Source of the DNA: Tubulanus polymorphus
Taxonomy: Eukaryota > Animalia > Nemertea
Direction: 5' to 3'
Assembly (NCBI RefSeq): GCF_964204645.1
Contig: NC_134026.1
Span: 1,201,950-1,265,949, forward strand
Length of the DNA stretch: 64,000 bases
Shown here: in pieces, positions 796-63,076 of the stretch
Layout: each line of letters starts with the position of its first letter
Position numbering within the stretch: the stretch's first letter is position 1
Translations under genes and position numbers: made by a program
The notes under the pieces: generated by a model
The model's input: only the letters and a program-made list of their open reading frames with translations
The model's database searches: none
Told to the model about the DNA's origin: nothing

Positions 796-2583
796 TCACG
801 CGGATAGCCGGTTACTCGACGCTCATCAGAAAGATTCGGTTACACATTCTTGGATAGATGGAGGCAAAAAACTGAGGTAAGTTTGATGCAAAATATTAAG
901 GATATCATTCTACTTTATTCAACTTCTTCATTTAAAAAAATTCTACATAGAATATCCGTACAATTCAGTCGATTGATTTTAAGTTTTTAAGTTTTTTCCT
1001 CCATTTTCTAAAAGAAAACGTCTTGAAATACAAAAACGCAATTTCATTTTCTTTTTAATTGAGCAAATTCTTGCTGATAAAATTATGAGATATAATTCTT
1101 ATAATGAATTATTAGTATTCGTTTTCATAGACTTCTCGGTTTCAAAGGGAATCCTTATACTTATTTAAGTATTTCCCTAAATGAAGTGCCTGACAACGAA
1201 TTAATGAATATATACTTGTTTTAACTTTCATTTTAACCAAATCTACAACGACTTTTGGATTATCGACGGAAGATCATCGAACGCCTAATAACTACTGATT
1301 TACTGATTATACTGATTTCATCCTTTTGAAATCCTGGTCAAGTTCTGATCAGTCAATCCTCTGCTAGAATCAATTAAATGACAAGAAGCATCCATACTAT
1401 AGTATTGTGGCTGACCTGATTATCAATTAAAACGCGTGTTTCTAATTCTCTGTGGCATAGAGTGCATTTTCATTTATTAGAATCAATCATTTTGTACTAT
1501 ACGCTCGTCACAGGTTATTGGAAAAATGTCTGCGGTTATTAAATTCATTTCCGATGAATTGGCTTTTTATGCGTTAATCGGGATTTTTTCCAGCAATGAT
1601 CGATCGTTTTCCTAATCTTCCCGAATCGATGTGGGAGGAAAACGGGTCTTTCCAACGAGATCATACGAAAAACTAATGTTTATTCGAATATCGTAAAGGT
1701 TTATCGCATACGTATGAATGACAGACGTTACATATTCATGAGTTCATGAAATATGGTTGAAAACTTTTAGCATTTTCAATAGAATCGATAGTCAAATGTT
1801 ATAACTTGATAATAACATTCCTTGCCTTCTGGGACGTTGCGGGGACCTTTAAGTAACGGACATATACTATTTTGCTTTTTTGTAATACGCCTATGACGTA
1901 GCATCATAATGAAGCCGTATGAGGTAATCTAGATTTGTTTTCAATCACGAGGTTCAGCTTCTATGTATATATACTGAAGTTAAGCAGCCTGAGGAAGTGA
2001 AGATACATCGGTCAATTCGGGGTATGATGTATCAACACGATCAGTAATTCTTTCCTCGAGGGGATTGATGGATCAGTCGGTTCAATCGCGGATAAAAATG
2101 AAAATCTTCTCCAACTTATTACTGGTCTATTGAATCTGTGTTTGCCAGGCGTGTAATGCTCGGTTTTGGATAGAAGCGATAAGACCGACCTTTGTGCATC
2201 TACCACCTTTTTATACAGTGATTGTGTATACGGTGGCAACCACTGGCGTATCATCGAACTCCGTGTAGTTCAACGAATTCGCGATAATTGGACGAGCCGG
2301 CGACGAAAACAGAATTCCCTACAGAAATTCTTTACAGATTTTGAAAAATATTGAAAGATTTCCTCTATTTGATCGACGCAATAAATTCATTCATGATAGC
2401 ATTTTCGCTTTAGCGATGCTTTATGAAATAAGTTGATGTTGAATCGACGAATGTCACACATATATCTATGTGTATGAATTCTAATTGCCTCTAAGGTAAA
2501 CATAACGAATTCTATATCGAAAGCAGATGTTTTGATAACCATTCGATACAATGAATATATATTCTGTTTTCAGGGAGCCAGTT

Positions 2584-5500
2584 ATGCCTTTTTCTCTTTC
2601 TGTATTGGCAAAATGTCACACGGATCTAATAAAAAAGGTGCGCGAGTCGAGAAAACTCGTAGTCGGCATTGTGTTCATGTGTTTGTTAACAGATGGCATT
2701 CTGCTCTGTGTTGTAGGTAAGCTAAATCAGCGAATGTATCACAAACACCGTCATTTCAGAAAACATTTCGTGAAAATTCCAGCACGTATGAAAAATACTT
2801 GAAAATTTACAAATTTTTTCAGTACCGATCATACCTGACTATCTACTCCGTCTTGAACTGAGAGAAAACTCCTACGAATATAGATATTCTAGTTCTAACA
2901 TATCGACGGGAGATGTTAATAATTCTGCGAGGCTTCATTACAACAATTCACTCGATGGGAATCTGAATCGTGACGGAAATTCAACAACATCAGCCGATTT
3001 CATTTTACCACAGGATATCATAAATGAAAATAGTAAAGTTGGCTGGCTTCTGTCATCGAAAGCGATCGTGCAACTTTTTATTTATCCGCTGGTCGGTGTT
3101 GTATGTTGCAGGTAACATTGCAATTTAAAGTTTTATTCGCGCGATAACCACACTGAAACGTGGTGAACAGATAATATAATAAAAACCCGTTATGTACAAA
3201 TTAAAAGAATTCAAGTTGATCTCTAGAGTGACATCGAAACGTCGTGTATTTTACAATTTAGATTTTTTAAATCAAATAAATAAATTCTCAATTTTAGAAT
3301 TCTTTTAATTTGTAGATAGTGGGTTTTTATCTTATAATTCGTACATAGATTCCCGCACTGATGGCCGGATCATTCGACCAGGGTGTCCGGCGTCTAGACA
3401 CCAAATTTGCACTGGACATACATGATTCATTGTTTTCATGTTCACGCCAGGGCCTCCGATGTACGTTTTTTAAACCCAAAAAGCATTTTGTAACCCGTAA
3501 TTAAAAAATGAACCAATGAAACAATTTCTGAGTTCAGATTTGACTCAGTGTTAAGACATTAAAATGAAAATCTGATTCCCGAATATTACCTGTCACTAGA
3601 ATAAATACAAACTAATGATTTCGAAAAACTAGTGCATTCGATGATCGAAACTATCGATCGATTTCCCCTGATATATAGTGATGAATATCTTTTTTCTCTT
3701 CTAGAATTGGCTACGTCATTCCACTCTACCTCGGTTCGTTCGTCATGTTTTTGTCGTCGTTGGGTAAGCATCGCGATACGAGCAGGCGCGCGTACGTCCG
3801 CGCATCTGCCTGCCGTTTCTCGATAAGACAAGCCAAGTGAGAAAAAAGTGCAATGAGCCATCCAATAAGCGGCTTCTATGCGCGATAATCATCTGTAATA
3901 TAAAGCTAATTCAATTTCATACCTCATTTCTGCCTGGCTGCGGAGAGCTGTTTGCCGGTAAAATTAGTTATTTGGGATCAATTGATTTCGATCACTATTC
4001 TTCCCGTATACTGCCGATAATACCGATGAGAGACGTCCTTTTTTTCTGTGCGTGCGTAAATCTAAGATATTTTCTTCTTTAGTGTTCGCATTTTGTGAAT
4101 CGTACGCCTTACTGTTTTTGGCGAGATCTATCCACGGATTGGGCACCTCTTGCTACCAAGTTGCAGGTAAATGAATAAGCTTAAAGCTGCAGAACTAGAT
4201 ATCCCATGAAATCCAAACCTTGACCTAATGTGAACGCAGTTCAACGATCTGAAATATCGAATCAATATAGAATTACATTTTTAAAAGCATTCGCTATTAA
4301 ACTATAGACCTAAAGAATATTGAACTCGCTGTGTATAGCGTGGAATCAGAGTTAACTCAGCAGTAAATGAAGCCTATAGTTCATTTCAGTCAACTCAAAC
4401 CTATCTCCTGTTACGTGAATATGTCATAGTGACGATAAACTCCCAACAATCCTATCAGCGGGGGGGGGGAGTCGGGGGGTTGGCTGCGGGTTAACATTTC
4501 ATCTCGTATTCTAAACTTGTTGAATATGATGACATGGCCCTTTCTGTCTTATTAAAACTTCTTGTAAAATCTCTCTAACTGTATCTCTTACTATGTACGA
4601 CTATGTTATCATTGATATGACAGGTTTAGGTATGATCGCGGCTGTGTACCCCAAAGACAGAGAACGAAGTCGAGCGATGGGTATAGCTTTGGGTGGACAA
4701 GGATTCGGTATTCTCAGTAAGCATCTATCTACCTCAGGATTTCTCCGAGAAATTCATATTCATCTGAATCCATATTTTTGTTTGCTCGTTGAGTTTGAGT
4801 CTTCACTTGAACTAGGGATTTTCTTTATTGTGGAATTCAAATTCAAATCACTCAAGCACGTCTAAAACGACAACTCCAAACGACTGTTATATATAGTTCA
4901 TTCTAAAACCCAATCCTCATTTCAGTTGGATATCCGCTAGGGGGCAGTCTATACGCCTTCGTCGGAAAGATGGTTCCATTTCTTATAACTGCAGTAATAG
5001 TGGCCTTCACAGGAGGTGCGTCTATCATTGAATCAAATAATGATCTCCTTCGCCTTTCGCCACTAAATGTTCACATTGGAATTAACTAACACTAACTTTC
5101 TATTCTATTTATTTGTCAGCAAATTAGATAACACAAATATACATGTTTACATACATTCTACACAGATTATAGTTAATATATGTAATCGTATACATGTAAT
5201 GATGTATTGTGTAGTGAGCGATTGATCGTCTGTTAAATGCTTTTTTCTATTTCAGTTCTGATATTAATAATATATAAACCAACGTTAAACTTAGAGGTAA
5301 TAATGACGTCCTCGACTCAATTAATATACAATAGGATATAAGCGATGATAACACAAAGCCTTTAGCGAGACTTTTATAATACAATAGATAGACGAATATT
5401 TTTGAGAGTTTTAACTAAATTTAAGTACTGTTCCTTCATTCAGAAATTTAAAAGAAGGCGAACATTGAATATTTGTAATTTCTTTCAGGACACTTTGTGG

Positions 5501-8500
5501 CGTCGATACGCATACAATCAAAGGGGGTGTTCTGATTTTCTGTTTGAAGCCTCATTGGCAACCGCTGGAGAACGTTTAACCTTGTGTCTTTTTTCTGTTA
5601 CAGCCACGAATCGTTGGTACTCCACTTCACGTTATACTGAGAGACCCTTATATATTATTAGTAGCTGGTATGTAGATGACTTTCACAATTGATTATTTTC
5701 TATTCAGATCACCAACCTCAGGTTCTACCTCAACACATGAGATATTTTGGGTTCATCATGACGTGTTCGATGATTTTCTTGTCAAACAACACCTAATGAA
5801 ACTATAGAATCGATGCATTTATTGATAGACGTTGCGAAATAAGGAAAATTAAAATGTTTAGAAAAAACATCTCATCATATTGAATTAATGATTACGTCGC
5901 ATAAACTAAATACAATGATATTTACAGGACTACTGATGATCCCAGAAATGGCTATTGCTATTCTGGAGCCAACATTGCCGATTTGGCTGGCCGATTATCT
6001 ACACGTTGAAGAATGGCAAATAGGCAAGTATTGCGACCTCACCCCCGCCCCCAACACCACCTACTATTCAGCCTTAGGTTGTTTAAACACCTTGTTCGCA
6101 GATCATCTTCAGCAACAATCCCGGTCGAAAATTCCTAGAAATAATCATGACGACAGCTCGTCTTGCGGGAATTTATATAAAAACAAAGGTGACAGCACCA
6201 AAAAACAATAATAAACAGAATCTGTTACAATGAAAAGAATTGAGGATTAGAATACACATTTATTCACTCTAGACATTCTAAAGAAATGAAGACAAATTAA
6301 AATCAGCACACCAAAATATGACATTTTTTCTATTAAAACTCTAATTTAATCTTGATAATTACTAATTTAGAAAAAAAAAGAAAATATTTCTGTTCTGATT
6401 CAGGTCTAGTATTTTTACCGGACTCTATAGGACAGTTGATCGCTTCAAATGTGTTTGGAATTGCTAGCTATAGAATAGGAAGGTAACGTATTCGATTGAG
6501 TATAAAGTGTATCTTCATTTACGTATAACGAATATAAATCCGTTGATATATTTTTCTAATTTGAAGGTGGATTTGTGGTTTGACTAGTTTACTGTCCGCT
6601 GCTGCATGTCTCATCATAGTGAGTTTGATCAGAATAATCACCATAACAATTTTGTTTTTATTGTTGTTTTAAGCATTCTATGAGTAATACATATAATTGA
6701 GATCGAGAGACTTAAGTTACGCCCGACATTTCACCTTTTAGTCAATAATACTTGACCCCAGCACCCCCTGACTGGTCTGTGACACTGAAAACCTATTTAG
6801 CCCAGTTCATGTAATATGAATATCAGAAACAGTGGAAATCAGCCGCAACAAAATATCAGTAAACATCTCGGCGACAGAAGTTCAAGATGCAAACATCAAG
6901 AAATTTAGTTTTATACACGTTTCAACGTTTATATTTGCATTGTTTTTAGTTACCTTTTGCGACGAAGATTGTCCATTTGATACTTCCACATTTTGGTGTC
7001 GGTTTCAGTATCGGTAAGTAGGGATTTCTCAGAAATCTGTCATGCTTTGAAAGAAAACTCGACCCCGTAGACAAGACTATCATTTTGAACTGATCTCCGA
7101 GCTTTTTTCTAATATTCTTTTAAAGTTCTAGCATCTTCGATTCTCTGGCGTCAGGTGTTAATAAAGAACTAAAACGAGGGGTATATGAGCCGGATGGGGG
7201 AACATATTATTTGAATCAATCTCTTAGTTTTATCGGGTTTTCATCTCTTATCTATTCTCTACGCCCGAATGTGTGGCTATTCTTTCAATACTATATACTG
7301 TGTCATTTTCCTCGAGACAACGAAACATGAGATTCGTAAACAAATATTTCAGGAATCATGAACGCGACTATGTTGCCCTTGCTTGCCCTTCTTGTTGATC
7401 AGCGACACCGTGCTGAGTACGGGATGGTATACGCAATAGGCCAACTGGCCTGTAGTCTGGGATACGCAATTGGTAAGTAGTACCTATACAATCGCCCAGT
7501 ACCTATATCTGGTCACCGCGGAAAATACAATGTTTTAATCAAGAATAAAAACGACACAAGTTAGTACCTCGAAAGTCGAATCAACGCTGAAGAAGTTCCT
7601 CACTGAAAATTGATGATGAATGATCATGATCTGGTGATTTACTGAGATTTTAAAAGATCTCGGCTGCCAATCATAAGTCGATTTCTCATCCAATCCAAAC
7701 ACCTTGATTTTACCGTGTTCTACAGAATTTTGAACACACATGTGTTTCAGGGCCATCGATTGGTGGACAGTTGGCTGGTATTATGGGATTCCCGTGGTAA
7801 GCTCGTAAATCGTATACAGAGCCGACTGAAAGGGTTTCCGAGGAACTTATGAATCGATGTTTTCGATGTTGTTTTTCCAGGTTAATTAGAGGAATGGGGA
7901 TATTCTGTCTTCTCGCGTGTCCATTCACGTTCTTCCTCAGACAACTGCCATGCGACGAAGAACACAAGGTATAATAACAAATCACAAATCGATATAAAAA
8001 GGGGGATATCGTAACAACTTACCTGTATATCATTATTTATTCGAGGTGCCACGAATTTGACAATGTTTGTAATCGAAAGGAATTAGAATATGACATTTAA
8101 TCTCTGAAATATGGTAAATGATTTTTCATGCTCCGCAACACTGTGCGTTGGGTTATGATAGATAAATGAATAGAAATTGGAATAGAAAATGTCTTGGCCT
8201 TTAACCATATGTAGGTTTATATCTATTTGTTTCATAAAGGGAATAATGAGAATAAAACACGGTTACGGATGTGGTTGATTTTCGCCTGTTTTAAGCAGTC
8301 GTTTATTGTCTTCTTTTGCTACAGAGTTAATCTTACCACCGGAAGTGCTAAACAGGCAATTTACTCGGCTCGGATGAAATCTATTTCAGTTGTTTGTAGT
8401 TTTGCGTAAAACACTAAAAATAACGAATCATTTATTGTTCATTTCAGGCCATTTTAAAAGACGACCATCTCTCTCATGCCTCGTATTCGGTGCGTGGTGA

Positions 8501-10110: not shown

Positions 10111-11692
10111 AGTAGCTTAAGAACGCGGACCCTAATGAAGTTTGTAACCATTCTTTATTAAATGGAATCTGAAGATGAGAACTAACGTGGTAAAAAAACA
10201 CTGTGCCGTGTGTTGGAAATTCTGAAATGGACCTGAAACTGCTCAATATAGGGAATCGTATAAGGAAACAATCTGGACTTTCTTTTTGCTCGTGGAGAGA
10301 TCAACCTTTTATGAACTGGGTATTGACCATAACAGTATATAATAAGCTAGGGAAATTATGCCGAATTCCAAGAAAATTTCTATCTAGATTTGTGTTGTCA
10401 ATCAGTAGCTTGTGTTTAACGTGTAAACTTTCGGTTATATTATGATTTCCCGCTTCCAACCAAACGGCTGACAGAATGCTCTTAACGACACGTCCTTCGA
10501 TGATGACTCTGTCATCGCGTTTGTTTTCAGTTAAAACATATTACTCGATATCTGTCATATTAAATCACATCGTAGCCGCGATAATCCTTAACCTTCCAAG
10601 GAAGTCGAAACCCGACACGGATGTTTGGATTAATGTTGTAACACTAATTGCCGTAAAACTTCGAACGCAGAAATATTTACCGAAAATCAGCCACGGTCCG
10701 AGTTTTCACTTGCCAGCCGACAAGGCCAGCTCCACACAATATTCTCATGCATTTTAAAGGAACGTTGTTTATCAGCTCAGCTCCTTGATTTCAGTCTTCG
10801 AGTTGCAGACAAAGTACTTATTTCAGATTGATTCAAATTCAAATTAATTCGTGGTGTTATATGGTTTGTGATTAAGTCGTTACAACAGTTGCCCATTGTA
10901 TTATTAGCATAAGAAAACGGCCGATTGGTCGAGACTCTAATAGTTACGCATATAAAAACCCTATTGCCTTAACGAACATTAAGCAATATTTGAAATTTAA
11001 CTTTACTAAAAAGCGATTTTGAATCTTCACTTTACTAGCAAGAATTCTGCCTCATTAAGGCGACGTTTTTTTAGGCCATTTGAATCTTTGTTCACGCGAA
11101 ACACGTAATGATATTCATCGTTGTAATATTTGCCACTTTCAAGTGAACTCACACGATTGCGTCAGCTTTGGTGACAATTTGACTTATATATATGTAAGCG
11201 GAGGCGGTGGCGGCCAATTATTCATTTTCGATAATCCACTTGGAATTTGAGGTATTACGCGCGGGCTTCAGGCGTTTAAACACAACTGCTCTACGCGAAT
11301 CATCAATAACATGAAGAAGGAAGATTTGCCGGGTTTTATGATCAAATATCAGATTTAGACCCGATGACGGGTTGTAACGAAAGTTCATAAAGAACGTGAC
11401 AGAAGCAACTCACAGAGTTTTGCATTATTTATCAACACAACGTTGGTCTCACGTGAGTGGGTTGGATGATAGGTCACCATGGAGACCCATCCTAGAAGTG
11501 ATCGGAAACTTTTCCAGGATGAGTTGGTAACATTCATCGCTCAGTAAGTTTTCGTTGCTAGGCAGTGATAAACATTTCCCATTTAACCTCAATTTATCAG
11601 AGATAAAAGGCAGTGCGACTTGGGAGCAGGCCCTTACTTTTCAGAAACACGGACCATTTTAGATCTCTGGATAAATTGCGAAGAGAGGGAAA

Positions 11693-14600
11693 ATGGAAGC
11701 AGGTAGGCAATACATTTAATCACTCAATGATTCATGTATTTTTGTTTATGTATTTCTTTTTCTTTTATAAGAATATCTATTCAAATTATCGAAACGATGA
11801 ATTGTATTCTATAATCTTTTTTACAAAAAACTTGATTTTGTTAAAGATATTTTAGATGTTTAAGATTTTAAACATGAATTGTGTACGACAATTTGTGAGA
11901 AAGTTTCCAAGTAGTCGGCATTTTTATAATTATCGTTAATATGTGATTTACTGATTTACGATTAACTTTTGTATTTCATATAAACAACGCCAAAAATATT
12001 TGACCGCTAAAATTTAACGGAGTTCGCGGAGGCATTGAGTTAAACGTAGTAAATATTTGAATTCAAGGTTTAATCGGATATCAAAGCCATTAGCTATAAC
12101 GTGTAGTCAGTGATTAGGTGAAATATTAAACCAACACAGTGTTTATTATTAGTGAGCTTTGTGCCACTAACTATAAATGCGACTAGGTACATATTTCAAT
12201 TCTAATTATTGACCGCGAAATTTGTGCGAGAATTTACTGAATTCATTTAATGGATTCGTGGATGTTTAAGTCATTGTGCGCTGCTTTTACGATTGTAGTT
12301 CAATCACTGTTTCAACGACTTCTAAATGAAAATCGGTTGTATTCAAACGATTTTTCACCACGCACCGAATTCGAGGCATGAGAGAAATGGTCGTCTTTTA
12401 AAATGGCCTGAAATGAACAATAAATGATTCGTTATTTTTAGTGCTTTACGCAAAACTACAAAGGACTGAACTAGATTTCATCCGATCCGAGTAACTTGCC
12501 TGTTAAGCACTTCCGGTGGTAAGATTAACTAAAACAGGCGAAAATCAACCTAAGGTTTCTAATGATATTGTGTTTTCAGTAATGATACAGACGCGAACGG
12601 CTGAGTAATTATTCATTGGGTACAAAAACTCATTTTTGGCACAACGCATTACATTCGATATTCCATTTCAAGCATATCGAATTTATTTCTGTCTTTTCGC
12701 CCCAATGTTTGTCGAATCGGTTTAGTTTTCTAATCCAAAGGTCGGTTTGTGAAGTGTAAGATGACTGCTACACGATTTCAACCAGCGCGTTTATCGTATA
12801 TATTCATTTATTTCAACTGCCGCCGATGTGTTGCTGAAATAGTTCTGCAAAACGACGTCAATTTTTCATTTGACATGTGTAAATAACGAAACTTATTGAA
12901 CATCGATATGAGAAGTGCGAACGCCCACGCCGCAAATTAAAAATCTACTTCATTCCGAACTGTTAAAAAACTGAGTACGCTCCTCGGCCTGGCAATAAAA
13001 CGGTTAAATTCTGATACTTTAACCTATAGACATTATTTCCCAACATCACGAAGTGTCTCGAAGAGTCTATAGATTGCTATTTGTGTCTCACTCTGACGAC
13101 TATTCAAATTCTACGTCGCAAAAGTGATCTACTTTACAAAAAGATATATGTGTCAAGATCCTCATATTAATCAAATCAATGTAATCCCGTTTGCGTGGGT
13201 GATGTCACCATCGAGTGGTTAATCATTGCATACGTAACATCTATAAAAATACTGTGCATTTCGTGTTAAAGTTATCGTTTTCATTTTATTGAATGAAATA
13301 TGTTTAAAACTACACGAAATAAACGTGTGATTTGTTGATCTTTTTTCTCAGTATCAATCCGTGATGTAACCGTGTTACTACTCGTCTTCTTGTGCGTGAT
13401 GTCTCAAACGCAGTCACTGCCAGTGGAAGAACGGGGCGCGTTCTATCGGGATATTCTGCGTCAGCTTCAACGCGGCACAAACGTCGTACAGCACCGAACC
13501 TTTTCGGACAGATTCGGCCAACAAGACGACGGGGAGAAAGATCTGATCGACGGACGCGTCCGGCGCGGATCTCCTGAATATCTCACCGTCGTTAGACAGA
13601 AGCTCGACCACATGGCTTCATCGGCACTAGATCTAAAATATCGTTTACAAGAGACCTTCCAGGATTATGTAAGTAAATACTCGCAGTGGATCGTATTTTC
13701 TGTTACGTTAATGGTGTTAGTTGATTCGTTCTGATAAATCAAGATATTTAAAGTTTTAGAACTAACATATATCATCGATCGTCTAGTGGTATTTGGTTAA
13801 CACCGTGCCACATAAGTCGTTGTTAATCCCTGCTTCGACGAGTGCTCGGTAAACGTTAGAGTGACCGGAAATAGATCGTATCAATTAACTAATTCCTCTA
13901 TGACCTTGGAAGGTCAAACATGTACAGCGCGATTATGACCACTGTAACAGTGACGTATATCGTATGATCTCAGAGATAATAGTTAACGTAAATTAGGCGG
14001 CTGAATTGTAATATTGCAGAATTATTTATAGTTGATAGTTCGGTATTAATTCTAATTCTAGATATCCGATATTTTAGCGGTATAGAAATGTCCGTGTTAT
14101 AATTTCTAACGATAATTAGATCCACAGCAAGATTGTGTTGATGAATATATTCTTCTTGAAAAAAAACGCTCGTCTTTCGCCCATATGATGATGGTTACTA
14201 CGATTCATAGTGCAATCTTTAATCTACTCTTAAATACGGGAATCAATATTTGAATTGAATGAAAACTTTTACTCTTTTGGTAGATTTTGTATTTGATAGA
14301 AAGGTAATCTGCTGATAATACGACGGATAAACTGATCTATTCTCAATGTAGCACAATAAACGATCGCACAATTAGTGATATCGTATATTTATTTATCGAT
14401 CCCACGGCTTCGCGATCAATCTAAATCTCATCTTCATAGAAACATTACTTTTTACTCTTTGATTGAGATTGAGATTAAGATATCGTTATTAAAGAAGTTT
14501 CCAGTTTCTAGGCGCCATTTCGTGGCGGTCGCTCGAGGTCCCCATTGTTGCGATAATTTTTTTAGTCTTTTGTGAAACATAAGATATTACCAATTAAATG

Positions 14601-16596
14601 GTCGTTCATCGGGCAATTTACTGGATGCTGTTATCGTTTTCTATTCTAACAGGATTTCTGTTTTGTTGCTCTAATTTCATAGTGCATTCGTCGAAAGCGA
14701 GCGATTCCTGCTGACAAATTCAAAAACTGTGAAATATTTGCCGTTGCTATGACTAATCATCCGCTTCTCGAGATTCCGGAGATGACCAGCCACGATACCG
14801 GCTTACAAAATCTCAACGACGTTTTACAGGTTTGATATACTTTCTTAAAGCTCACTTCCGTTCAAACTAACCGATGAACAATATTTCAATTCTATTGATT
14901 TCATCAAAAATATTGCTGATAACTATAACTCACAGATCGTGTTTTTCTTTGAACTGCACATTAAAGCCTCGTCACTCAAACATATAGAAATGAATGACAG
15001 AATGTAACCAGTATAACCGTTCAGAAGTTGGTTTGATTATGATTATGATATTCTTTATTTCTGGATGCATTGAAATTACATATAAATATAGAAACATTAT
15101 ATATATAAAAAAATAATTTCACATATAGTCTAATGAGTTATAGATAATTTCAATAGAACAGCAGGGATGCCAAACCTTGGTTTTAACCATCGGAATACGA
15201 AGTAACCCCGTTCAAACTTTCACTACGGTTACCTTTTAATCTACTTTCGAGCCTGGCCCCTGGTTTTATAGCATTCTAAATACGGAGCTATCGGAATCGT
15301 ATTACGAGCGAGATTCATATTTGTTCTACATGAAACCTGATATGAAGAGTTGGTGGTGATTCTCGGAATCAACGGTTTCTTTTTTTATACCTGGCGCATC
15401 GTCACACTCGCAGCAACTGCCGTCACCTTTAGAAATAAACCCGTTCAGCAGAAGATGGAAGCGTGTATCGATGAATGAATTGCAATTTGAAAACTTGTCG
15501 TTCATTGAAACAGCTTTAAACGAGAGTAATGTCTGCGATTCTGCTTCAATGCTTAAAATCAACAGCTGAACTCTATCGGCTGTGTTTGTGCTTAATTGAT
15601 CGTCGATGACGAGAGGCGGGGGTGGAAATAACAAATTAGCTTATGAATCTTCCAGCTGATTAACTGTAAAGACAACTTCCTTTCGTTATAACATTCACGC
15701 GTTAGATAACAAATAGACTGAAATAAATCTATAGTGTTGATAGCTCATTTTTTCGATTGAATAATATTCTTGCGGCTAATCATTTGACAATTATGTACAT
15801 TCAAACAGGAGATGCTGAATCGAGCATTGAACACTATGAAAAGATTCAAGAAAGTAGTCATCAATGTAACGACTATGGAAGAAATGGAAGTGTGCAAACA
15901 CAATTTGTTGGCCGATAAAGCCTGTCATATAGACTGTTCTAAAGAAGGCAACGGTCACGAATTCTGGTGTCAAATGGAGACAATAACAAAACGATTGAAT
16001 TCGTTAATTGCCCACATCAAGATCACGGTAGGCAACACTCGTTTTGTAAAAAATGCTACATTTATTGTTTTTTCTTTTACTGAATTATTCCCAAGGCTAA
16101 TGCCGGTATTTGATATTCCCGAGTGAGTTAACTCCTACAGATTCTCAGAAAGTTTTCCGAATTAGCCCGACCTTGCCCCCACGTTTAAAGTAAGGTCAAT
16201 CTCATCCCAGTACTCCTACAATTTGAGGGATCAGATCAAGCATCATTGTGAATGCATCCAGTTTCCGTTCTTGTAACACCATTGTAACATAGTTATTATT
16301 AACCCACGTATAGCCGTCGAAACGGCCACCCCGTTCTTTTCTGTACACGGATAATCGTCGACAATGTAAGAATAATAATCGTGTAGATATTATTTTGTAT
16401 TTTGGCTGCTTGATTGCAGATGAACGAGTTGCATTTAACCCTCGAAGAATTCCAGATCATGATGAACATAATGGAACCTTCCTCTATATCTAACTCGCAA
16501 CGCTTGGCGTACAACTTCGCCGCACTTCACCGTCTCATGGAACAGACAACAGAATTTTATGAAAAAGTCATCGAGTTGCAGAATCGCATTCCGTGA
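11693..16596 (+). CDS. Secreted 289-aa precursor, putative long-chain four-helix-bundle (IL-6/CNTF/LIF-like) cytokine with signal peptide, pro-region and furin site
   Basis: Exons 11693-11702 (ATGGAAGCAG|gtaggc), 13352-13668, 14683-14829, 15809-16027 and 16420-16596 give an 870-nt in-frame CDS with GT-AG introns of phase 1,0,0,0. Signal peptide is MEAVSIRDVTVLLLVFLCVMSQTQS, followed by an RVRR|GSPEY furin site, four long amphipathic segments and 6 Cys. The gene model is well supported; the cytokine fold is inferred. Confidence 0.75.
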
Positions 16597-17687
16597 GCGC
16601 ATTAACGTTATTGACTGCATCTTTTGCGGCCGATGCAAGCAAATCTGTGATACGGGAGCGCGCAATCACCAAACGACAATTTAACGAATTTATTCTGCAT
16701 ATTTTCCAACGCCAACAAAAACAGAGGAAAGCCATAGATGTTTACCATGAAAAATCAATAGCTTGATTAACCAATATCAGAAATGAATTTCAATCAAATC
16801 AATTTTGATCCAACCAGATAGATAGGCATCATCAGATCAATATCGTCATCATGGCCGTCAGGGTAAAAATTCCCCCCGAAAATACTCTTCATAGAAATAT
16901 TGCATTACAGACCCGTCGATTTGTTCGCAAAAGACATATGTGGCCTGGCTACCCACGTAGTAGCAGTGTTGGTAATTTTTGTCATTTCGAGATCTTATAG
17001 TAGGTACTTTGACTTTCGTTACGAATAAGAAAAAAATAACTTCTAAAATCTTTGAAATGATCATGTGATCAGATAGAATGATTGCTACTTCTAAGAGACG
17101 GAGGCTGCTCTCAATATTGCCCTCAAACCAAAACAAACGAAGACAACGAAAACGAACTTGCACATCTAATGTAACAATAATTGAGTACATATCAATCGAG
17201 TATGAATAAGTAAATATACATATAAATATTATCGTGTGTCTTATATAGTGTGACCGTCCTTTGCGAGAAATGTTTTAAGTGGACTTCGATCTTGGAGTTA
17301 GCGAAATTCTAACAACAGAGAGATAATTTCACCGAGTTCCACATTACGTATATATCACATTTCATATCTGGTGTATACGATCATCGTATATCACAAAAAC
17401 AACACAAAGACAACTATATTATGTAAGTGAGATCAATATCTACTATCGTTCAATGTGTGTGCGTGTGTGTGTAACGATTTTTGTTTTGAATTTTAAGTGG
17501 GCCGACATCTATGTAGAATAAATCAGCGTGTTCAATGCGCTACATCAAAAGATAACGAATAACTCGTTTTTATTCATTTTTTTGCGTTTTTGTGAAGTTA
17601 AGACAAATAACATCTTCCGACTTGCGCTTATTGAAGAAATGAGGTCCGCATTTCTAGGACAGGAAATATTTTTTTCTGACGGACGTG

Positions 17688-18050
17688 CCTGATCGTGCCG
17701 AGTCCAGGAGCCCGTTACCTGATCGTGCCGGGTCCAGGAACCCGTTACCTGATCATGGCGGGGACCAGGAGCCCGTTACCTGATCGTGCCGGGTCCAGGA
17801 GCCCGTTACCTGATCGTGCCGAGTCCAGGAGCCCGTTACCTGATCGTGCCGGGTCCAGGAGCCCGTTACATGATCTTGCCGGGTCCAGGAGCCCGTTACC
17901 TGATCGTGCCGGGTCCAGGAGCCCGTTACCTGATCGTGCCGGGTCCAGGAGCCCGTTACCTGATCGTGCCGGGTCCAGGAACCCGTTACCTGATCGTGCT
18001 GAGTCCAGGAACCCGTTACCTGATCATGGCGGGGACCAGGAGCCCGTTAC
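17688..18050. repeat. GC-rich minisatellite, ~12 copies of a 30-bp unit CCTGATCGTGCCGGGTCCAGGAGCCCGTTA
   Basis: Direct tandem periodicity of 30 bp. Two 31-bp variant units (CCTGATCATGGCGGGGACCAGG...) occur as the 3rd and last units. Confidence 0.95.
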
Positions 18051-19126
18051 TCGAAACGACTTCGCATTTCTTGAAAGTTTCCTCAAATCATTACGAAAAA
18101 AAGTAAGAATGAAATGTCGAGATGAGTCGGGAATAAAATGCTAAAAGAAAACTGAAAAATAAAGCCGTTCCGTAGGATATTGTATCTACTTGCAAGCTAT
18201 CGCTCAGTAACATTTAAGTCGTAGATGATTTTTCCTACCTTTCCATAACTAAGAATGCGTTCAATAGTGCAGGCTCTCCGGAAACTCCGCTTATTTTTTC
18301 ATTGCGAATTCGATCGTTTCAAAAACTTTTGAGCCAAAAGTTTTGATAAGGATAAGACGTTCAAAAAGATTTGTCTACAACATATTTTTTATTTGAAATA
18401 ACAGTGCGAGGTTTGTATGAAGAAGCGAATTAAATAGAAGTATAATTTCAATAATTTAACCCTGTATAATGGTATCACAGTCGCAAACAAATGAATGTTT
18501 TTCAAAAATAGATAATAAACTGCAATGAGCGAAATTCTATGATTTAGTAATCAACAAAAATCCAAAATCATGTCGCATCTGCGAATTTGATATAACCAAT
18601 GCACCTGCGCAATACTAGTAATAGTGGACATTATCACAATAAACATACGATAATATATACATATTTAGTAAAATCTTTAAAATTTAACATTCTTGAAAAC
18701 TTTGATACAATTAGAATTTGATTTTACATATTTGAAAGTAACAAAAAGGTTAACGGGCGTGAGCCGATCCGATGGGTTATACTATATGATATGTGTTATA
18801 AAAATCATAATATATAAATATATAAAAACGTCATTAGCAAAGTTATATATGGATATTGTCTTCATAATTAAAAGGCCTATAGTAAACTATGATAAATAGA
18901 TCATTATCGGAAACTGGAAACTCATGGTAACTGGATTTTTCAAGCCGAATAATATCTTCTATTATTGATGAACTTAAATTTGATATAATTCTAGCCTACT
19001 GTGTAACACTCGTGGGGATTCGAACCTGAAATGATCGGGAACTCGTGGTTACGTATTCGGTTCGAACTCTGTACGAAGGATTAATTGATAACTGTCCTAA
19101 GTGGCATAAATTACATCGATATCAAT

Positions 19127-22100
19127 TTAATAGAGGGGGTCTTCGATAACGGCGGTTTTTTCGATAGGAAGAGGTGGTGGTGGCGGCGTTTCATTTCGAA
19201 GTTCCAGTGGTTCTACGTCGGAATATTTATCTTTGGTGGCAGCTTTCTTTCTATAAAGGTTATTGAGAAAAAAAAGGAATAGAATTTCAATCTAAGAACG
19301 AGCATCGATGACGGAGGCGTGATAAAACTACGCAATAAATCGCGAAAAAGATTTAAAACATCAAAACTATAAAGAATTTATTAAAAACTCGAATTTTCGG
19401 TTTTATCCTAAAAGCCATTCTCAAGAGTTAAATCTTTTTCGAACTTGTGATTGTGGGACTCATATTTCATCGATGACGGAAGATGAATCAGATGATATGA
19501 ATACGTTACGACTAAATTACTAAATGAATTTCTAATGATCATTTTAACTTTTTACGTAGAATTAACAAAACATAACCTGCTATAAAATGAATTGTAAATC
19601 CCTGTATGTAACTTACGCCTTTACGTGTTTGTAGATGACAACTCCCAGAGCGCCCAAAACAATACAAACACAAACCACGACTATAATGATAATATCGGTC
19701 GTATCCAAAGTTGTTGGTCGTTTGATCTTGTTGTGTTTGAGGAGACACGCGTCAGCTGAAATGAACGAAGGAAATACTTAAATGTAGCGGATCGGAGCGC
19801 AAGCCAAGTCGGAATGGGCTTATTTTCAGTAATATCGTATTCTATACCATAATACATCCAATGAATACTCAATGTTTTCAAATTAAATCTCACAACCCAC
19901 ATGTAAAGCCAACGTATGGATTCTAGTCTCAATAAATTGTTTGATAATCTAATTAAGATCATCCTTGTATCGCCAAGTTTTGCCGTTACTCCCTCAGCGG
20001 GGAATTTTTGTTCTTACGTACTATTTCTTTTAGATAAACATTTCATTATTCCACAAAGCGATTTGAAAAAAATACAATTTATACAGATCAAAGTTTATGA
20101 GCGAATTGAGAAAGAATTTAACTTACTTTGGCGAAGCGTGTAACCGTACGGATTCTTTTTAGCGTCGCAGTAGAGACACGAGTCAGTGACTTTACTTTCT
20201 CCAGGTGCCATGCAGTCACCGGACGGTAAGTTACAAATACCAGCCTGTACGATATTAGATATACGATATCAGATATGTGATATACGATATTAGATTATAG
20301 ATATACGATGAGAAGTTGCTTTTAGTTAATTGACGTGATATGCTTGTTAACAATCACGGAAATCAGTAAAACCTTACGGATGTATGAATCAAGATTTTGA
20401 CTTGTTTTGTAAAATCGTAAAACCAACAGCCAATGGGTGCAGATGTTTATACCTTCTTCGTGCAAGTTGGAGTCTCTGCGTTACATTCGTGACAGTTCGG
20501 GTCAAAAACAAGATACAGCAAAGAATCACCGGGGTTTATCTTATTGTTGCTGAGAGACACAGAGTAACTATCGTTCTTGGTTGGAAGTACGCAGATGACT
20601 TGCGATTCGGTTACAAAGTTCGCTTTCGAGATAACTGGTGAGCCAACTGTTTCAGCTGAAGTAGTTATCTAAAACAAAAAGAATATTCTAGTTTTCATCT
20701 TTTATTTCGGCTAAAACTCTTTCAAGAAATAATTTAAAAAAATATAAATTCAGTCAAACTGATATTGTCACAATCTAATAACTGTATAGTTAAGGCAATT
20801 TAACAATAAATAGTCCAGTTCTGAATAATTGCAAAAAAAATTTTTGCCCCTCATGCGCAACATCTCGTAGAAAATAGTGTAAATAATTGTATGCATGTTT
20901 CTATGGACCTAGAGTGTGTATTGGATGAATTAACGAATAGATGAAAAATTATGTTTCCTAAGGTCTAGAAAGAGGATAGTCACAAGGCGTGCTAGAGCGA
21001 GCTGAAGAATATGTCTACAATATACGTGAGTGCGGCCTTCATAGTCTTTCCGTGAATTTGCTAGTTACTCACTTTCAAAAGCGTCACATGACACGAAAGA
21101 TCATCCGAATTGAAAATATTTGACGCTGTTACCAGCGCTTCTCTGCAGTTAGTAACGCGAGGATTGCAGATTCCGTCTTGACCGATGTTCGTCGGAATTG
21201 GAGCTTCCGTCATGTTCACCGAGCAAGATTCGCCGTCCCAACCCGGGTAACAGGTACAATTTCCTGCAATGTCAATCAAACAGCTTTCAAAACACATTCC
21301 AAAATAGCCTAGGCCTTTTTTAATTAATCGGAGTACAGGTGTTTCAAAAGAGAAAATGGAAAGCGATTGGATTACAGGTGTTTTATAACAGTTGGGAACA
21401 GATAAAAGATAAGTACAGTTCTTGTATCATTCGAGTATTTCCACATAAAACATTGGAAGGACTGCGGAAAGAAATTTTTAAAAAGAGTGGAAATTGTGTC
21501 GAATTCGAATGATGGCAAAAACGGAGAAAAATTACTCTTTGCTAATCAATACATTGACAATTCTGACGGAAATATCGAAAAAAGAACACGACCAACGAGG
21601 GCCGAATATAATTAAAATTCATATGACGCTCTTGGTGGAATTCCAATTACCAAAATGAAACTATAATTACTGATTAAATGAAGGATAATGAATTCAGTCG
21701 CTAACACGCAGATACTGTAGATAATCTTACCTCCTTCGCACGCTCCTCTTAAGTTACATTGTCCAGGACAGCTGTTCGCAACCATGAATGTGACAATAGC
21801 CGCTCCAGCAGGAGTGTCTGCAAAATCTGGATCTGCGTCGATAGCATTCTGACACGAGGCTTTCATAGATTCGAGCGCACCTATTGCGCTTGCGTTCAAA
21901 TCACCGCTAGCCTATGTGAAATGAAAAACCTTACGTAAATAAACAAGAAATGAATTGCTAGAAAGTTTACCTTATAAGGCGAAACTTGTTCAAATTCAAA
22001 CCTGTATATCTTCGACACATTGCGTGAGCGTAGTCGACAAATCTAGATCATTGCTGGGAACGTTTGCTACTAACGCACATTTCGTGTACATTTCATTTTG

Positions 22101-25100: not shown

Positions 25101-28100
25101 TTTCACATTGGCCCATTTTTGGTTTTCTCGTCCGAAAATTCATTTCAAAACTTTAGATCTTCTCTCGCGTACATAAAAACTATTGAGTAGGCCCGAATCT
25201 ATGAAATATATAAAAGAAATATATGACACTCGATCTAAAAAATTTTTAAATAAGTTTTACACTTTTTGTTTTAACGTGGTCTTTTCCTTTTAAAGCCACG
25301 TTAAAACTAGTTTTCCATTTTAACGTGGCTTCAAACGAAAGACTCGTTTTAACGTAGCGTTGAAACGCAAAGAGTCTAATGTATAGAAAAAAAAATGGTG
25401 GAGTTCGAGTGTGTTGTTTGTCGAATCGCTTACTAGTTGTACGAGCGTTTACTATCCGTGAGGATTTCACTGGCGATCACTCTGACGATACATGAGCTTT
25501 TTCCTTTACACGGAATAGATGGGGATTCTTGCACTTTGAATTTGAACGATTTCGTCTCACCCATATTCAACTCCAAACGAGCCACATTCACTACAACCTG
25601 GAAACAACGAATCCGAATACGAGATATAGTATCACCTACAGCGAAAACCACCATTGACTAGATATAAATCATTAGGAAAGATTACTTCAAATCGCTTTTC
25701 ACACGACTTAGACATCAAACGTTCCATTGCCTCAAAACGTATTTTGATTTCCTTAGACGCATATGCTGGACAATCCTTTATGTTAACAGTCAAACAAGCT
25801 TTACTAGATTTCATTAATCTAAAAACAAAAGACTAAGTATGAGATATTAAGACAAAGTTGAGAATGTGATTGAGAAAGTTTGATAGAAACCAAACGATTC
25901 ATTTCAGAATGAGTTCTAATTGAATAGATGCTTACGGACACAATGAAACGGCAGCTTCTTTTTTATTCTCTAACTTTTCTTCCAGTTCTCCGATACAGGT
26001 TTTAGCTGCCATCAATCGACAGGTTGAAGAAAGCCACGGCGCGTATTGAACGTGTGGACATTTTTCTTTTAGTTTATGACATTTGATGATTCCCAGAACC
26101 CCCCGGTCTATCATCGATTGGTATCCGCCTTTACAGGTCTTCATGTTTTCTCCAATACACGACACCATCTTTGCCATATCCCTGAAACATTCATTCATAA
26201 GATCGGGCGGATCTCAAGAAGTCTGAATGATACGGGGATAAACTTGAGGTTAATTGAAACGAATTAAGTTAATCCCGGGTTTAACGTCAATACAGGACTC
26301 AGTTCCACAGTTCCACAGAGTTAAAGTTAGTTCATTTTCAATGTTTTATTTAACCCAGGGTTAAATCTTAACTCAGAACTGTGGAACTGGACCCTGGTTT
26401 GTAAAACTGACCCATGATTCTGTAAAGTCAAAATTATGAAAAAAACTAATTTTGTTGGTACACGTTTCCTACTCGAAACAAATTTCGTTTCAGAGACTAC
26501 CCCGAAAATATTCATTCGGCTGTAAACGGTTATTTACGTGCAGACGTCCTTGCCATCAACGAAATTTTTCGTAAGACCTTCACTGAACGTCTTTACGCAG
26601 GCTTTGGCTGTATAATAATCACATCCCTCTTTTTCTACAACGAAATATTGTTATCAACCTTCAGTTTGAAAAGAATATGGCTACATGTATGTGAAAGTCA
26701 ACATCGCATGTGTATTTAGGGAAGCGTCCTGGGGATATGTATCTATAAATCTTTCGTCGGGTTAGCTAAGTCAAAATAAACTACATTCTATAACTTTCAA
26801 AGTTGTAAGTGATTTTCGAGGTTTATTCAGAATTATCTCAGAATGAACCCAGACATACTATTTTTCACAAGTATGTCCCCGCGACGCTTCCGTACAAATG
26901 GATTCACGTGGCTACGATAGCTGAAACACTTACTCGCTATGGTGGTTTTACAGTAATTATCCGCACATTTTTCCAGATGATGTAAAACCATTTTCTTTCG
27001 AGTTTCCTGATCGGCTGTGCATGCGGTCGCTTCATCATCTATACACTCTTTTTTCTCTTTCATTTTGCTAGAAAAAAAGGGAAAAACCGTAACGACGAAA
27101 GTATCTCGATGAGGTATTCGTAGCAGCAAAACGGTTTTTGAAATCAAATCTATTATACGACGTAAGAAAATGTATTGAATTGTCGAAAGTTGATTTCGTC
27201 GTCGGGGATCTTATACTACCGCGGAATATATTGGATTGTAAATACAAATAAGTAATTGTCTTGTTTCAGATCAAAGCAGATTATAGATGTGACATACATA
27301 TGATGTCGACACCGCATAGTAAGAACTGGTAGTTTTGAAAATTCAGGTAGTTGATGTCTATTAATTTCATCAGTAACGTTCATCATCTCTGCAGTAATCG
27401 GCATATCGAATACTCTTATTAAGTACTGCCAGACCGAATGCAATCACTAATTTCTGACCATTGATATTGATTACATTGATAAGATGTGACCGTGCGGTGG
27501 AATCGGGAGATCTGATCCGAGGGATCACGGGTATATCGGTTATATGTGGTAAGATATCTGCGGTCATCTATTCACTTACTCGCAGAACGTTTCGTATCTC
27601 TGTGAGTAATACGCGTTAACACGAGCATACTCCAGTTCTATCAAACATTTCATCGGAGCCGACTGGGCGCATTTTTCTCCGGTCACAACTGGCGGGACCA
27701 CCGTACATTTAGTTCCGACCTTCTCCTTGAACACGCTTTCCTGAATGCGCATCGCATTTTTCACGGAGACGTAAGCGATTTTAACACAACCGGCTAACTT
27801 GTTGACGACGCATTTTAGATTTTCATTGAACGACGAACAAACTGCGGTCATATCATCCTCAATAACGACATCAGTGGCGGTTTTAGTTAGTTCTTCCAGA
27901 CATTGCTTGGCTTCGTCTATCTGACACGTATCTTCGTCAGCTTTCGGTGTGACATCTTCGCAAGCTTCTTTGTTGATAGCGTGTACGACATGCAAAGCTA
28001 TGTATAAGATTCGTTGAGTGTACACAGAACACTTTTTACTTTCCGACACAACGTTCAACAGCATAGCCTTGTAATCACTGTGATAAAAAAAAACGAAAAC

Positions 28101-31100
28101 CGCCATATATTCATTGAGGTAAATAAACAAATCAGTTACTCAATGAGGAAAGTACGGAAGAGCAATGCGGCCAACAACAATTTATTTTCAGTTTAAAAAT
28201 TCGACTTTTCGAGTTAGTAAGTCGACTTTTTAAACTCGAAAAGTCGAATTTTTAAACTGAAAATAAAGTGTTGTTGGCCGCATTGCTCTTCCGTACTTTT
28301 CCGTAGGAAAGAACAACAAAAAACAAAATTCTTTTACCGGCAGAACTTTTTCTGAGTTTCCTCATTGTCTGCAGATGCTTTAAATGTACGACCAAAGTAT
28401 TCCACGATTTTAGCTTTCAGCAACTCGAATTTACATTCGTCTAAAGTGATTGAACACATATTTTAAGCATATCAATGCATGAATAAATTTTTTCTGAATT
28501 TTTGGTAAATCATTTCAATACGCACCAGCTCCAGGTCCCATTTCGATTGTTTTCGCATCTGAAAATTTTCATATCAAAATGAAAAAAATGATGCAAACAA
28601 ATCTCACAATAAAATAAATTAACGCAAAATAGTCAAACTAGGGGTCCAAGGACACCATGCCCACTTGGGAAGTGGTTTGAAATGCTCAACAAACATAAGT
28701 TTTTAATATTCAACACCCACTGGTGACCATACACGGAAATATCTCTGAAACTCACAACAATCATAGAACATGTCATGAGCTACAATTATGGAAAGAATTT
28801 GCTATTGATCGCCGTTACGAAATATGCACAGGAACTAATAGAAATGGTCATATTGTATAAGATTGAATATGACTTCCCCTTGATGGCAATAATGAAAATT
28901 GGGTGATCCCAATTCCATATGGCAGCACTATTAATAATCAAATATGAAGTTAAAACCAGTTGATATTTTCTTTGATAAAAACCTTTCCCCTGCGAATGGA
29001 GGAATGATGACACCAAGATGGCCATCGTTTGACGTGTATCATTTCCCTGTGATGTTTGAGTTGATGATATACAATGATGACGTCGATGTTACAAATTTCA
29101 AAGCTACCTCACAAGCCGATAAAGCTGAGCGACACCCGCCATGAACAATCCAATAGGGTTAGTCTTAGGAAACCAAGATCCGGACATAAAGCAAGATAAA
29201 CAAACAAACAAACATACTGTCTTACTGAATTCAAACGTTCATGTCATCATCGGAGCTTTGAATATCATAGTATTCATTTCTTATAAGGATTCAGACCATA
29301 GTATACGAACCGTATTTCTGACATATCTCATTCTTCGTCGTCCCAATAGCTTCCAGAATTCGTTTCATGCGTACATATTTCACCTTGTTTGGACCGTTTT
29401 CACAGTACATTTTCAGTTTCGTCATACATTTTGTTGAATCCGTCGTCGCGAATTTTCTAATACAACCAAGAAATTACTTAAAACGTTTATTGCATTTTTG
29501 AAAAAAAAAGCTATTCGATAAGTTTCTTAATCAAAACTTCTGGACTCTATTCAACAACCTCGATAAAGATCTAAGGACACTATAGTCAGCAGGCAAGCAC
29601 AGTGACTTACCGGCAGAGTTCAGAATTGTACTTTCCGGCAAATATCCCTTTCATGAATTTACTATAATAGTCTTTCGAACACTGTAATGTTTCAGTCGAA
29701 TCGCATTTGACTGAAAGCAAAATAATTGAAGAACTTCATACATTCGGGAACTCTAAACTATGAGTCTCGAAACAGTGATTCTACGCTTGCTCGATGTTGA
29801 ATACGAGGTTGAACCGTTTTTACCTTCAGGTTTCATGCACTGACGCAGGATGCCTTGGAATAGGCCGTTGAAGTAGTAATGAATGAACTGTTTTTCTCCG
29901 GGACAGTTATTCATTTGTTTTTTAACGCAATCTATCGCTTCAGTGAGTCGACTGTAACAAAATCCATCGAAAACATTAACATTTTCTATGTGAAAACCGA
30001 TTAGCTCGATGATGCTATACTTTAAACAACCTGCATCGTGTTTCTTCGTCAACTTTTGTATCCAGCACCATTTTGGTACACACTGAATAAACTTTCTCAT
30101 TTGTGCAATTTTCCTTTACTGGTGGCAGGTCATTACATATTTTAGACGCGACTAATGACTTTCTCTTTTTCGCCAACACACTTATGAAACGGAACTGTAC
30201 CGCACCGCTACACTCTTTAATGTCCATCGTAATTTTTCTTTCAATATCGTAATATACTCTGCAAATATAAAAGGAAATTTATTTCTCTACTAAGGAAGGA
30301 TTTTACTCCCAGTGGCGTGGAGGATACGCGAGCGAAATAATTTAAACGATTAAAGCCTCGTTTCAGACGTTGATAGAAAAGCGATATTCAAATTTGTTGG
30401 ACTGTCTATGGGGAAGGATCTTTTTTAATAGGGGGTTAGTAGTAGCGGGGAACAAAATTCAGTATTTTTCATTAATTTTGTGTTTTACAGCGAAAACTTC
30501 CAATTGGTCTCTCAATGGGAACTCACTTGCAAATGCTTGATTTTATGATGGAGTCGTCGGTGACAGTTGCTTTCCAGAATAGTGAAAAGAATACTTTTAA
30601 GTACTTTTCAGCTTCCTTAAATCGGCACTCTTTACTCTCTGCAAGACAGTTAAGATTTTCATCTTATTTCAATTTTAACTTTTGCAATGAGTTATTGAGT
30701 CTTTTCTGATGAATAAAACAGCTTACCTTCTTCATCCGTGTCTGGAACTGGAATATAAACGGGCAAAAATGGATTAATCGAATTCATATGTATTGATTTT
30801 CAATAAACTACGGTGTTTTTTTATCATTGATCGGGATTATTTTTGGTATGTGTAACTGTGATGATGGCGAATCAAACTAATGTATTTAATGAACACATCA
30901 GATTGTATTTTCTGTTGCGCCCAGTCAGATTTCTGTAAAACCTATAGGTGGGGTGCATCGTACTAATCTACAGTGATGCAAGTGTGTCATTCCGTACAAA
31001 CGCGTGATAAAAATAACTGTATGCATGAGAAAAACCTGAATTCCCGATCGAAAATGATGATTTCGAACATTTTGATCAAGAAATTACATTTTTCTGTTTT

Positions 31101-51091: not shown

Positions 51092-63076
<11,985 letters not shown>

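Follow-up and report, generated by a model that had tools for sequence, protein, structure and literature searches.

Cytokines of the IL-6 family have been found only in vertebrates, where the IL-6/gp130 family is defined by signalling via gp130 or a shared beta receptor; IL6R-like receptors, JAK and STAT are present in molluscs, and the insect Unpaired proteins (Upd1-3) are named as invertebrate ligands (PMC13203501). Leptin and IL-6-family cytokines are described as not identified outside gnathostomes, with Dome placed as sister to LepR and IL6RB (PMC12284397), no invertebrate matches are reported in the survey of PMC9601804, and IL-12 receptors have been dated earlier than their ligands (PMC12162339). 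The vertebrate restriction of these ligands thus stands against a presence of receptor, JAK and STAT not just in molluscs but also in other invertebrates (PMC13203501; PMC12284397; PMC9601804). The shrimp ligands of Domeless described to date are proteins of other folds, namely peroxiredoxin 4 (PMC9195186) and Vago4 (10.64898/2026.10.26.761873), and an IL-6-like activity from starfish was reported in 1996 (cited by PMC9465101). Here we describe a gene on the forward strand of a 64,000-nucleotide stretch of the genome of the nemertean Tubulanus polymorphus (RefSeq assembly GCF_964204645.1, contig NC_134026.1, positions 1,201,950 to 1,265,949; hereafter the window, within which all positions are counted). 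Its coding exons lie between 11693 and 16596, and an earlier note on this DNA had proposed it as an IL-6/CNTF-type four-helix cytokine made as a furin-processed pro-protein. In our assessment the gene probably encodes a secreted pre-pro-cytokine which would be released by furin from a 50-residue leader and would likely activate JAK/STAT via a Domeless/IL6R/gp130-like receptor. That molluscs have IL6R-like receptors, JAK and STAT although the ligands were found in vertebrates only (PMC13203501) was counted in favour of the cytokine reading. In the literature covered, in which subscription papers and supplements were barely represented, no long-chain cytokine was described from nemerteans, brachiopods or other lophotrochozoans, and no furin-cleaved leader was described on a long-chain cytokine, the supplementary invertebrate Foldseek screen of a preprint on interferons lying outside this coverage.

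We built an AlphaFold model of residues 76-289, the putative mature part, with a five-sequence alignment of the mature parts of the protein and its relatives. The model was confident, with a predicted local distance difference test score (pLDDT) of 85.8 and a predicted template modelling score (pTM) of 0.83, and all five models were above 80. It contains four long helices (precursor numbering): A at 78-116, B at 153-186, C at 209-234 and D at 256-287, with lengths of 39, 34, 26 and 32 residues. These are joined by loops of 36 (A-B, which includes a mini-helix), 22 (B-C) and 21 (C-D) residues. The helices closely match the four long segments picked out in the earlier note, which had also described a long A-B loop and a Cys-rich B-C loop, seen here as the 36-residue loop and a stretch with four cysteines. 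For the mature part the model thus predicts the bundle of a long-chain class-I helical cytokine, with four long helices running up-up-down-down and long A-B and C-D connections.

Comparison of this model with known structures mainly returned cytokines of the same class. Using Foldseek against the PDB, long-chain class-I cytokines made up 40 of the 42 listed rows, with IL-11 at the top (template modelling (TM) score by target 0.80). Against 48,161 representative structures, VIA-align gave IL-11 (Z 17.7, root-mean-square deviation (rmsd) 2.6, 163 of 165 residues), CLCF1 (Z 17.5), CNTF (16.3), IL-6 (16.0), LIF (15.8) and OSM and IL-27 (both 15.5). Rows 1 to 27 were all helical cytokines, interferons were found at up to Z 10.5, and the best non-cytokine was ferritin at Z 8.2, aligned over three helices only (residues 77-214). 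A second VIA-align comparison gave CNTF (Z 19.2, rmsd 2.8, 174/174 residues) and IL-11 (Z 19.1, rmsd 2.4, 169/169 residues), and among the matches listed (n = 50) every one was a long-chain class-I cytokine. In a viral library HHV-8 ORF K2, the viral IL-6, ranked second with a probability of 0.97, with no match at E 0.001. The ESM Atlas, which uses its own model (pTM 0.63), placed the Tubulanus protein close to cardiotrophin-1, IL-6/G-CSF-like and CLCF1 clusters (TM 0.67-0.70) and its relative from the brachiopod Lingula anatina close to a cardiotrophin-2-like cluster (TM 0.69). The long-chain four-helix fold, for which the earlier note had suggested an AlphaFold and Foldseek check, was therefore strongly supported by a confident model, three fold comparisons and independent ESM Atlas models of the proteins of two species.

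By ESM Atlas features, both the Tubulanus and the Lingula protein also resemble unnamed clusters which are dominated by arthropods (0.91-0.92); mollusc clusters scored 0.86, under the bar of 0.9. The unnamed clusters include one of 53 proteins (mostly arthropod, 191 amino acids (aa)) and one of 114 proteins (mainly from molluscs, 229 aa, Pfam IL6 in 11%). It is possible that these clusters represent further invertebrate helical cytokines.

The gene itself consists of five exons, which together form a single open frame of 289 aa with an in-frame stop upstream of the exon 1 start. Every intron is bordered by GT..AG and the intron phases are 1,0,0,0, as the earlier note had read them. The coding part of exon 1 (11693-11702, + strand, as for all exons) comprises three codons and one base, in keeping with the claim that this exon encodes just the first three residues, and the phase-1 intron behind it lies inside the signal peptide. 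Exon 2 (13352-13668) encodes the remaining signal-like segment, the leader, the furin-type site and most of helix A; exon 3 (14683-14829) encodes C110, the last part of helix A, an A-B loop that holds C125 and the mini-helix, and the first part of helix B; exon 4 (15809-16027) encodes helix B with a glycan sequon at N177, a four-Cys B-C insert and helix C; and the coding part of exon 5 (16420-16596) encodes the C-D loop, followed by helix D and its family motif (residues 259-268). The remaining introns follow residue 109 (late in helix A and immediately before C110), residue 158 and residue 231, the latter two being early in predicted helix B and at the end of predicted helix C. A likely 3' untranslated region (UTR) follows at 16597-17612 (+), with an AATAAA at 17517.

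To assess splicing, positions 10500-18500 were compared with four public sequencing runs (X1-X4), which all come from one study and whose kinds are unrecorded. A 1564-base contig of run X2 skips introns 2, 3 and 4 exactly, at their GT..AG ends, and the sole match in the window to its 15-letter loose end is at 11685-11699, which joins exon 1 to exon 2. Contigs of this run also extend to 17282 and cover 17374-17612 within the likely 3' UTR. The exon junctions which the earlier note had put forward for checking were thus all found in one of the four runs; X1, which covers the entire locus, lacks all of these joints, and X3 and X4 gave unspliced pieces only, which are uninformative on expression. 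The five-exon gene of T. polymorphus is real and spliced. RefSeq holds the same 289-aa protein as XP_074643379.1 (LOC141900396, uncharacterized), but this entry was probably built on the same assembly and is therefore not independent support. Among the 40 of 52 differences between runs and window that were listed, at least 2 fell within the 870 coding bases, both synonymous and one of them inside the codons of the RVRR site, and at least 25 fell within the 4034 intron bases.

Repeats were observed in and around the gene. Intron 2 contains a very high-copy interspersed repeat at 14485-14560, which in each of the four runs has thousands-fold depth and is bordered by many different sequences. At position 12530 in intron 1 the contigs of three runs diverge with the same letters, representing an insertion allele or a repeat. 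Directly behind the 3' UTR, at 17680-18100, there is a tandem array of units of about 30 bases, whose frames give repetitive false open reading frames.

Vertebrate long-chain cytokine genes have intron phases of 1-0-0-0 and similar intron positions. The five-exon layout of the IL-6 gene is described in PMC13081863. Under assumed animal phase frequencies the string 1,0,0,0 has a chance of about 0.03, and so the phases were taken as supporting evidence only. This is of importance for the explanation that the protein is an unrelated four-helix bundle which has converged on the cytokine shape: the phase string is weak alone, the protein has no sequence similarity to known cytokines, and in VIA-align helical bundles may attain Z 13-14 from their common arrangement. 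However, the values of Z 17.7-19.2 obtained here exceed that level, lie about 10 Z units above non-cytokines and come with cover of whole chains. Convergence is also argued against by the signal-like segment and by three introns that fall close to the ends of helices A and C and to the start of helix B, and we consider it very improbable.

It should be noted that several results weigh against the reading of the gene as a JAK/STAT-activating cytokine. Searches of Pfam gave no family above cut-off, just sub-threshold noise such as FinO_N, and sequence searches of the PDB returned nothing under E 0.47. The best Foldseek match in the PDB was at E 1.8e-3, with none at E 0.001, identity in the structural alignments with known cytokines was 5-17%, and a model of the full precursor made from its sequence alone had a pLDDT of 41 and matched nothing in Foldseek. 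At 289 aa the precursor also exceeds the window of 150-280 aa which was used for lamprey IL-6 (PMC13081863). A fold shared with cytokines alone shows no function. Upstream of the coding start, at 10500-11692, no NF-kB-like or TTCN3GAA site was found, and the three TTCN4GAA sites and one cAMP-response-element-like (CRE-like) site in this region were indistinguishable from background; the 3' UTR contains only two ATTTA elements. Nothing in these regions therefore points to immune induction, and the present evidence would fit a role in immunity, growth or metabolism alike. With the register inferred from the alignments, the site-1 arginines of IL-6 fall on variable columns. Finally, the aromatic anchor of receptor site 3 is absent at the start of helix D, where the register was inferred from the ends of the alignments.

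Site 3 of the gp130 family is formed where the A-B loop and helix D begin and where helix B ends, together with a short B-C loop, and its anchor is a Trp or FxxK (PMC10022904, PMC9601804). We mapped this site from the positions at which the structural alignments start and stop, assuming helix D to be gap-free. Residue 257 then corresponds to IL-11 W168, CNTF F152, IL-27p28 W197 and IL-6 W185, and residue 256 to CLCF1 F178. Across four family members column 257 is Ser, Ser, Thr and Ser, and FxxK was not found at the start of helix D. The pole at which site 3 would lie is also where a conserved Cys pair, the glycan sequon, the four-Cys insert and the R-x-x-Y of helix D all cluster. As the vertebrate anchor is missing, the term IL-6/CNTF-type used in the earlier note applies to the fold, for which the model and fold comparisons speak, and not to the mode of receptor binding. 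Judged by this anchor, the protein is not an orthologue of IL-6, IL-11 or LIF. The mature part holds six cysteines, two at the junction of helix A and the A-B loop and four in the B-C insert. This differs from the canonical four-cysteine arrangement of IL-6, and the synteny conserved in IL-6 orthologues (TOMM7 and others) was not found within the 64-kb window, where the upstream neighbour is a vesicular amine transporter gene.

The missing site-3 anchor, on a pole which bears an insert and a glycan sequon, is also in line with a class-I cytokine descendant that does not activate JAK/STAT but acts as an antagonist or as a soluble-receptor partner subunit (IL-12p35/CLCF1-like), or has been co-opted. 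The structural matches include CLCF1, IL-27p28, IL-23 and IL-12, and an enlarged B-C loop lowers the activity of human OSM (PMC9601804). However, mean identity within the family is highest in helix D (41%), as expected of a receptor-facing or core-critical helix. Ligands of the GH, prolactin and leptin type match the model well (Z 11-15), and GH and prolactin signal without site 3. We regard a non-activating descendant as quite unlikely. For the preferred reading, a JAK/STAT-activating ligand, the rebuilt pole with its Ser/Thr, stapled B-C insert and sequon means that binding to the receptor is likely either specific to the lineage in its manner or made via sites 1 and 2 only.

We compared the protein to 1.84 billion representative proteins using phmmer (E 0.001 or better) and found five: the query itself, two Tubulanus paralogs, a Lingula anatina protein and a 135-aa protein from ENA. 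Paralog P0006 has 282 aa (E 3e-20), and paralog P0008 is a partial model of 121 aa (E 1e-7) which appears to miss its first exons. The brachiopod protein P0010 (E 7e-12) has isoforms of 274-293 aa, and one further isoform model of 200 aa starts after the R-x-R-R site. Identities were 24-32%. In the 135-aa ENA protein a Gln occupies the acceptor position and Val-Ser falls precisely at the end of exon 4; judged from its translation, the protein appears to come from reading through an exon 4 whose borders are the same. Word-index searches gave the protein alone, or together with the Lingula and ENA proteins. Using tblastn with the five relatives we found no paralog in the 64-kb window, the matches being the gene's own exons and one match of 14 residues (E 0.024).

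Despite low identity, particular marks recur across these sequences. The Cys pair 110/125 is kept in all three full-length members. Four cysteines at similar spacing between helices B and C are found in 5/5 sequences; in the T. polymorphus protein these are C187, C197, C201 and C212 (15893-15970, +), and they may form two disulfides within the insert. An N-x-T/S sequon late in helix B (N177) is present in four of the five members and not in the partial paralog, and the helix D motif R-x-x-Y-x-x-A-x-x-H (residues 259-268) is present in all four members which reach that helix. The alignments show conservation from nemertean to brachiopod of the putative leader, the R-x-R-R site, the cysteines and the predicted glycan sequon.

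By hydropathy alone, the precursor has one strong hydrophobic segment, at residues 9-21, and none later, and the segment is likewise single in 3/3 full-length members; the protein is thus likely to be secreted without a membrane anchor. Taking signal cleavage to be after residue 25, as judged by eye, the putative pro-region spans residues 26-75 (50 aa; 13417-13566, +) and holds an amphipathic segment at about residues 31-46, with similar leaders in P0006 and P0010. It ends with the furin-type site RVRR (residues 72-75; 13555-13566, +), two residues ahead of predicted helix A. An R-x-R-R is found at the equivalent place in P0006 (76-79) and in P0010 (84-87), so that an R-x-K/R-R site is conserved at the predicted pro/mature border of all three full-length members. 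By shuffling, the chance of this placement is about 0.006 per sequence, for a window picked post hoc and sequences which are kin. The pro-domain and RVRR site of the earlier note thus gain the backing of conservation, but it had missed a second furin-type site, RRKR, at residues 112-115 between C110 and C125 (14689-14700, +). This second site was rejected as a family feature, as it was present in one of three full-length members and is private to the T. polymorphus gene.

The leader could also belong to a true helical cytokine and ligand without being regulatory, as a folding or sorting aid, a segment which is retained, or itself a released peptide. It is weakly conserved, with the BLAST alignment to P0006 beginning only at residue 54; extra basic sites occur inside the leaders of P0006 (at 66) and Lingula (at 54), as in a peptide precursor; and the 200-aa Lingula isoform model starts past the R-x-R-R site. 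However, at most a few residues separate this site from helix A in every full-length member, and the region after it is predicted to fold confidently on its own. A non-regulatory leader therefore seems unlikely to us.

Under the preferred reading of a furin-released ligand, the precursor would enter the secretory pathway via its signal segment and be secreted, with a furin-type convertase cleaving after R75 on the way. This would release a glycosylated core of 25 kDa (residues 76-289) with three disulfides, which would bind a Domeless/IL6R/gp130-like receptor through helices A/C and D and thereby switch on JAK/STAT.

The window contains further genes. The upstream neighbour (2539-7477, +) is a vesicular amine transporter (VMAT/SLC18-like), two exon frames of which match VMAT structures with E about 3e-6. 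On the opposite strand, 19700-44050 (-) holds one or more large genes, including an EGF-like exon at 21064-21426 (-) with a weak teneurin-type EGF match and, at 25900-39500 (-), many Cys-rich, helical-looking repeat exons, among which the 6 frames tested had no match in Pfam. At 45784-47055 (-) two exons encode an apextrin C-terminal domain (ApeC; E 1e-15 or better) preceded by a weak PAN domain, and this gene likely encodes a secreted immune-recognition protein. Exons with Sushi (CCP) domains are found at 52043-53419 (-).

More broadly, we tentatively propose that an ancient family of long-chain class-I pro-cytokines, latent and furin-activated, persists in lophotrochozoans, that these proteins are the ligands so far missing for spiralian Domeless/IL6R-like receptors, and that their five-exon gene predates the protostome-deuterostome split; this wider proposal is possible, and we would stop short of calling it probable. 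To our knowledge, furin-switched latency is not known in the long-chain class-I cytokine fold class. Taken with the unnamed Atlas clusters, Upd suggests a wide occurrence of long-chain cytokines among invertebrates, and in this light the Tubulanus gene is less isolated and more a family to define. The gene provides a concrete, spliced and conserved candidate ligand in nemerteans and brachiopods that is open to expression and assay. If the proposal is true, the long-chain cytokine gene and its exon layout would be pushed back to the bilaterian ancestor, and pro-domain processing and a rebuilt site 3 would join the known cytokine designs. The combination of signal, leader, R-x-R-R, phases 1,0,0,0 and fold also offers a search recipe for regenerating or farmed spiralians.

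Among invertebrate ligands, Drosophila Unpaired 1-3 are also secreted JAK/STAT ligands of a protostome, acting on Domeless and four-helical, a likeness drawn from their description (PMC9601804; 10.64898/2026.10.26.761873); they were not among the five phmmer matches. The IL-6 of lampreys and hagfish is similarly invisible to BLAST and was found via signal peptide, predicted bundle, Foldseek and exon layout (PMC13081863). Those genes keep the IL-6 cysteines and synteny and activate STAT5 (PMC13081863), whereas the neighbours of the Tubulanus gene are the vesicular amine transporter gene and unrelated genes. Type I interferons share the five exons and a helical bundle (Z up to 10.5), but they have five helices and phases 0-0-0-0 (10.64898/2026.05.30.728932), and class-I cytokines score 7-9 Z units above them on the Tubulanus model; a type I interferon was ruled out by these fold scores and by the phases 1,0,0,0. 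G-CSF, prolactin, placental lactogen, GH and leptin have the same predicted fold (Z 16.2, 15.1, 14.6, 11.9 and 11.2, respectively) and score below IL-11 and CNTF. We know of no N-terminal furin-cleaved leader in any of these five. The closest known proteins are the vertebrate gp130-family cytokines IL-11 (8dpw, 6o4o, 8qy4), CNTF (8d74, 1cnt), CLCF1 (8d7h), IL-6 (1alu), LIF, OSM and IL-27p28. Unlike these, the Tubulanus protein has a 50-aa leader with a furin-type site, and its family has a four-Cys insert in place of a short B-C loop and a Ser/Thr in place of an aromatic at the site-3 position, with identity of at most 17%. The gene thus appears to represent a known cytokine class in a new design, with a leader, an R-x-R-R site and a four-Cys insert, in a lineage from which the literature covered described no member.

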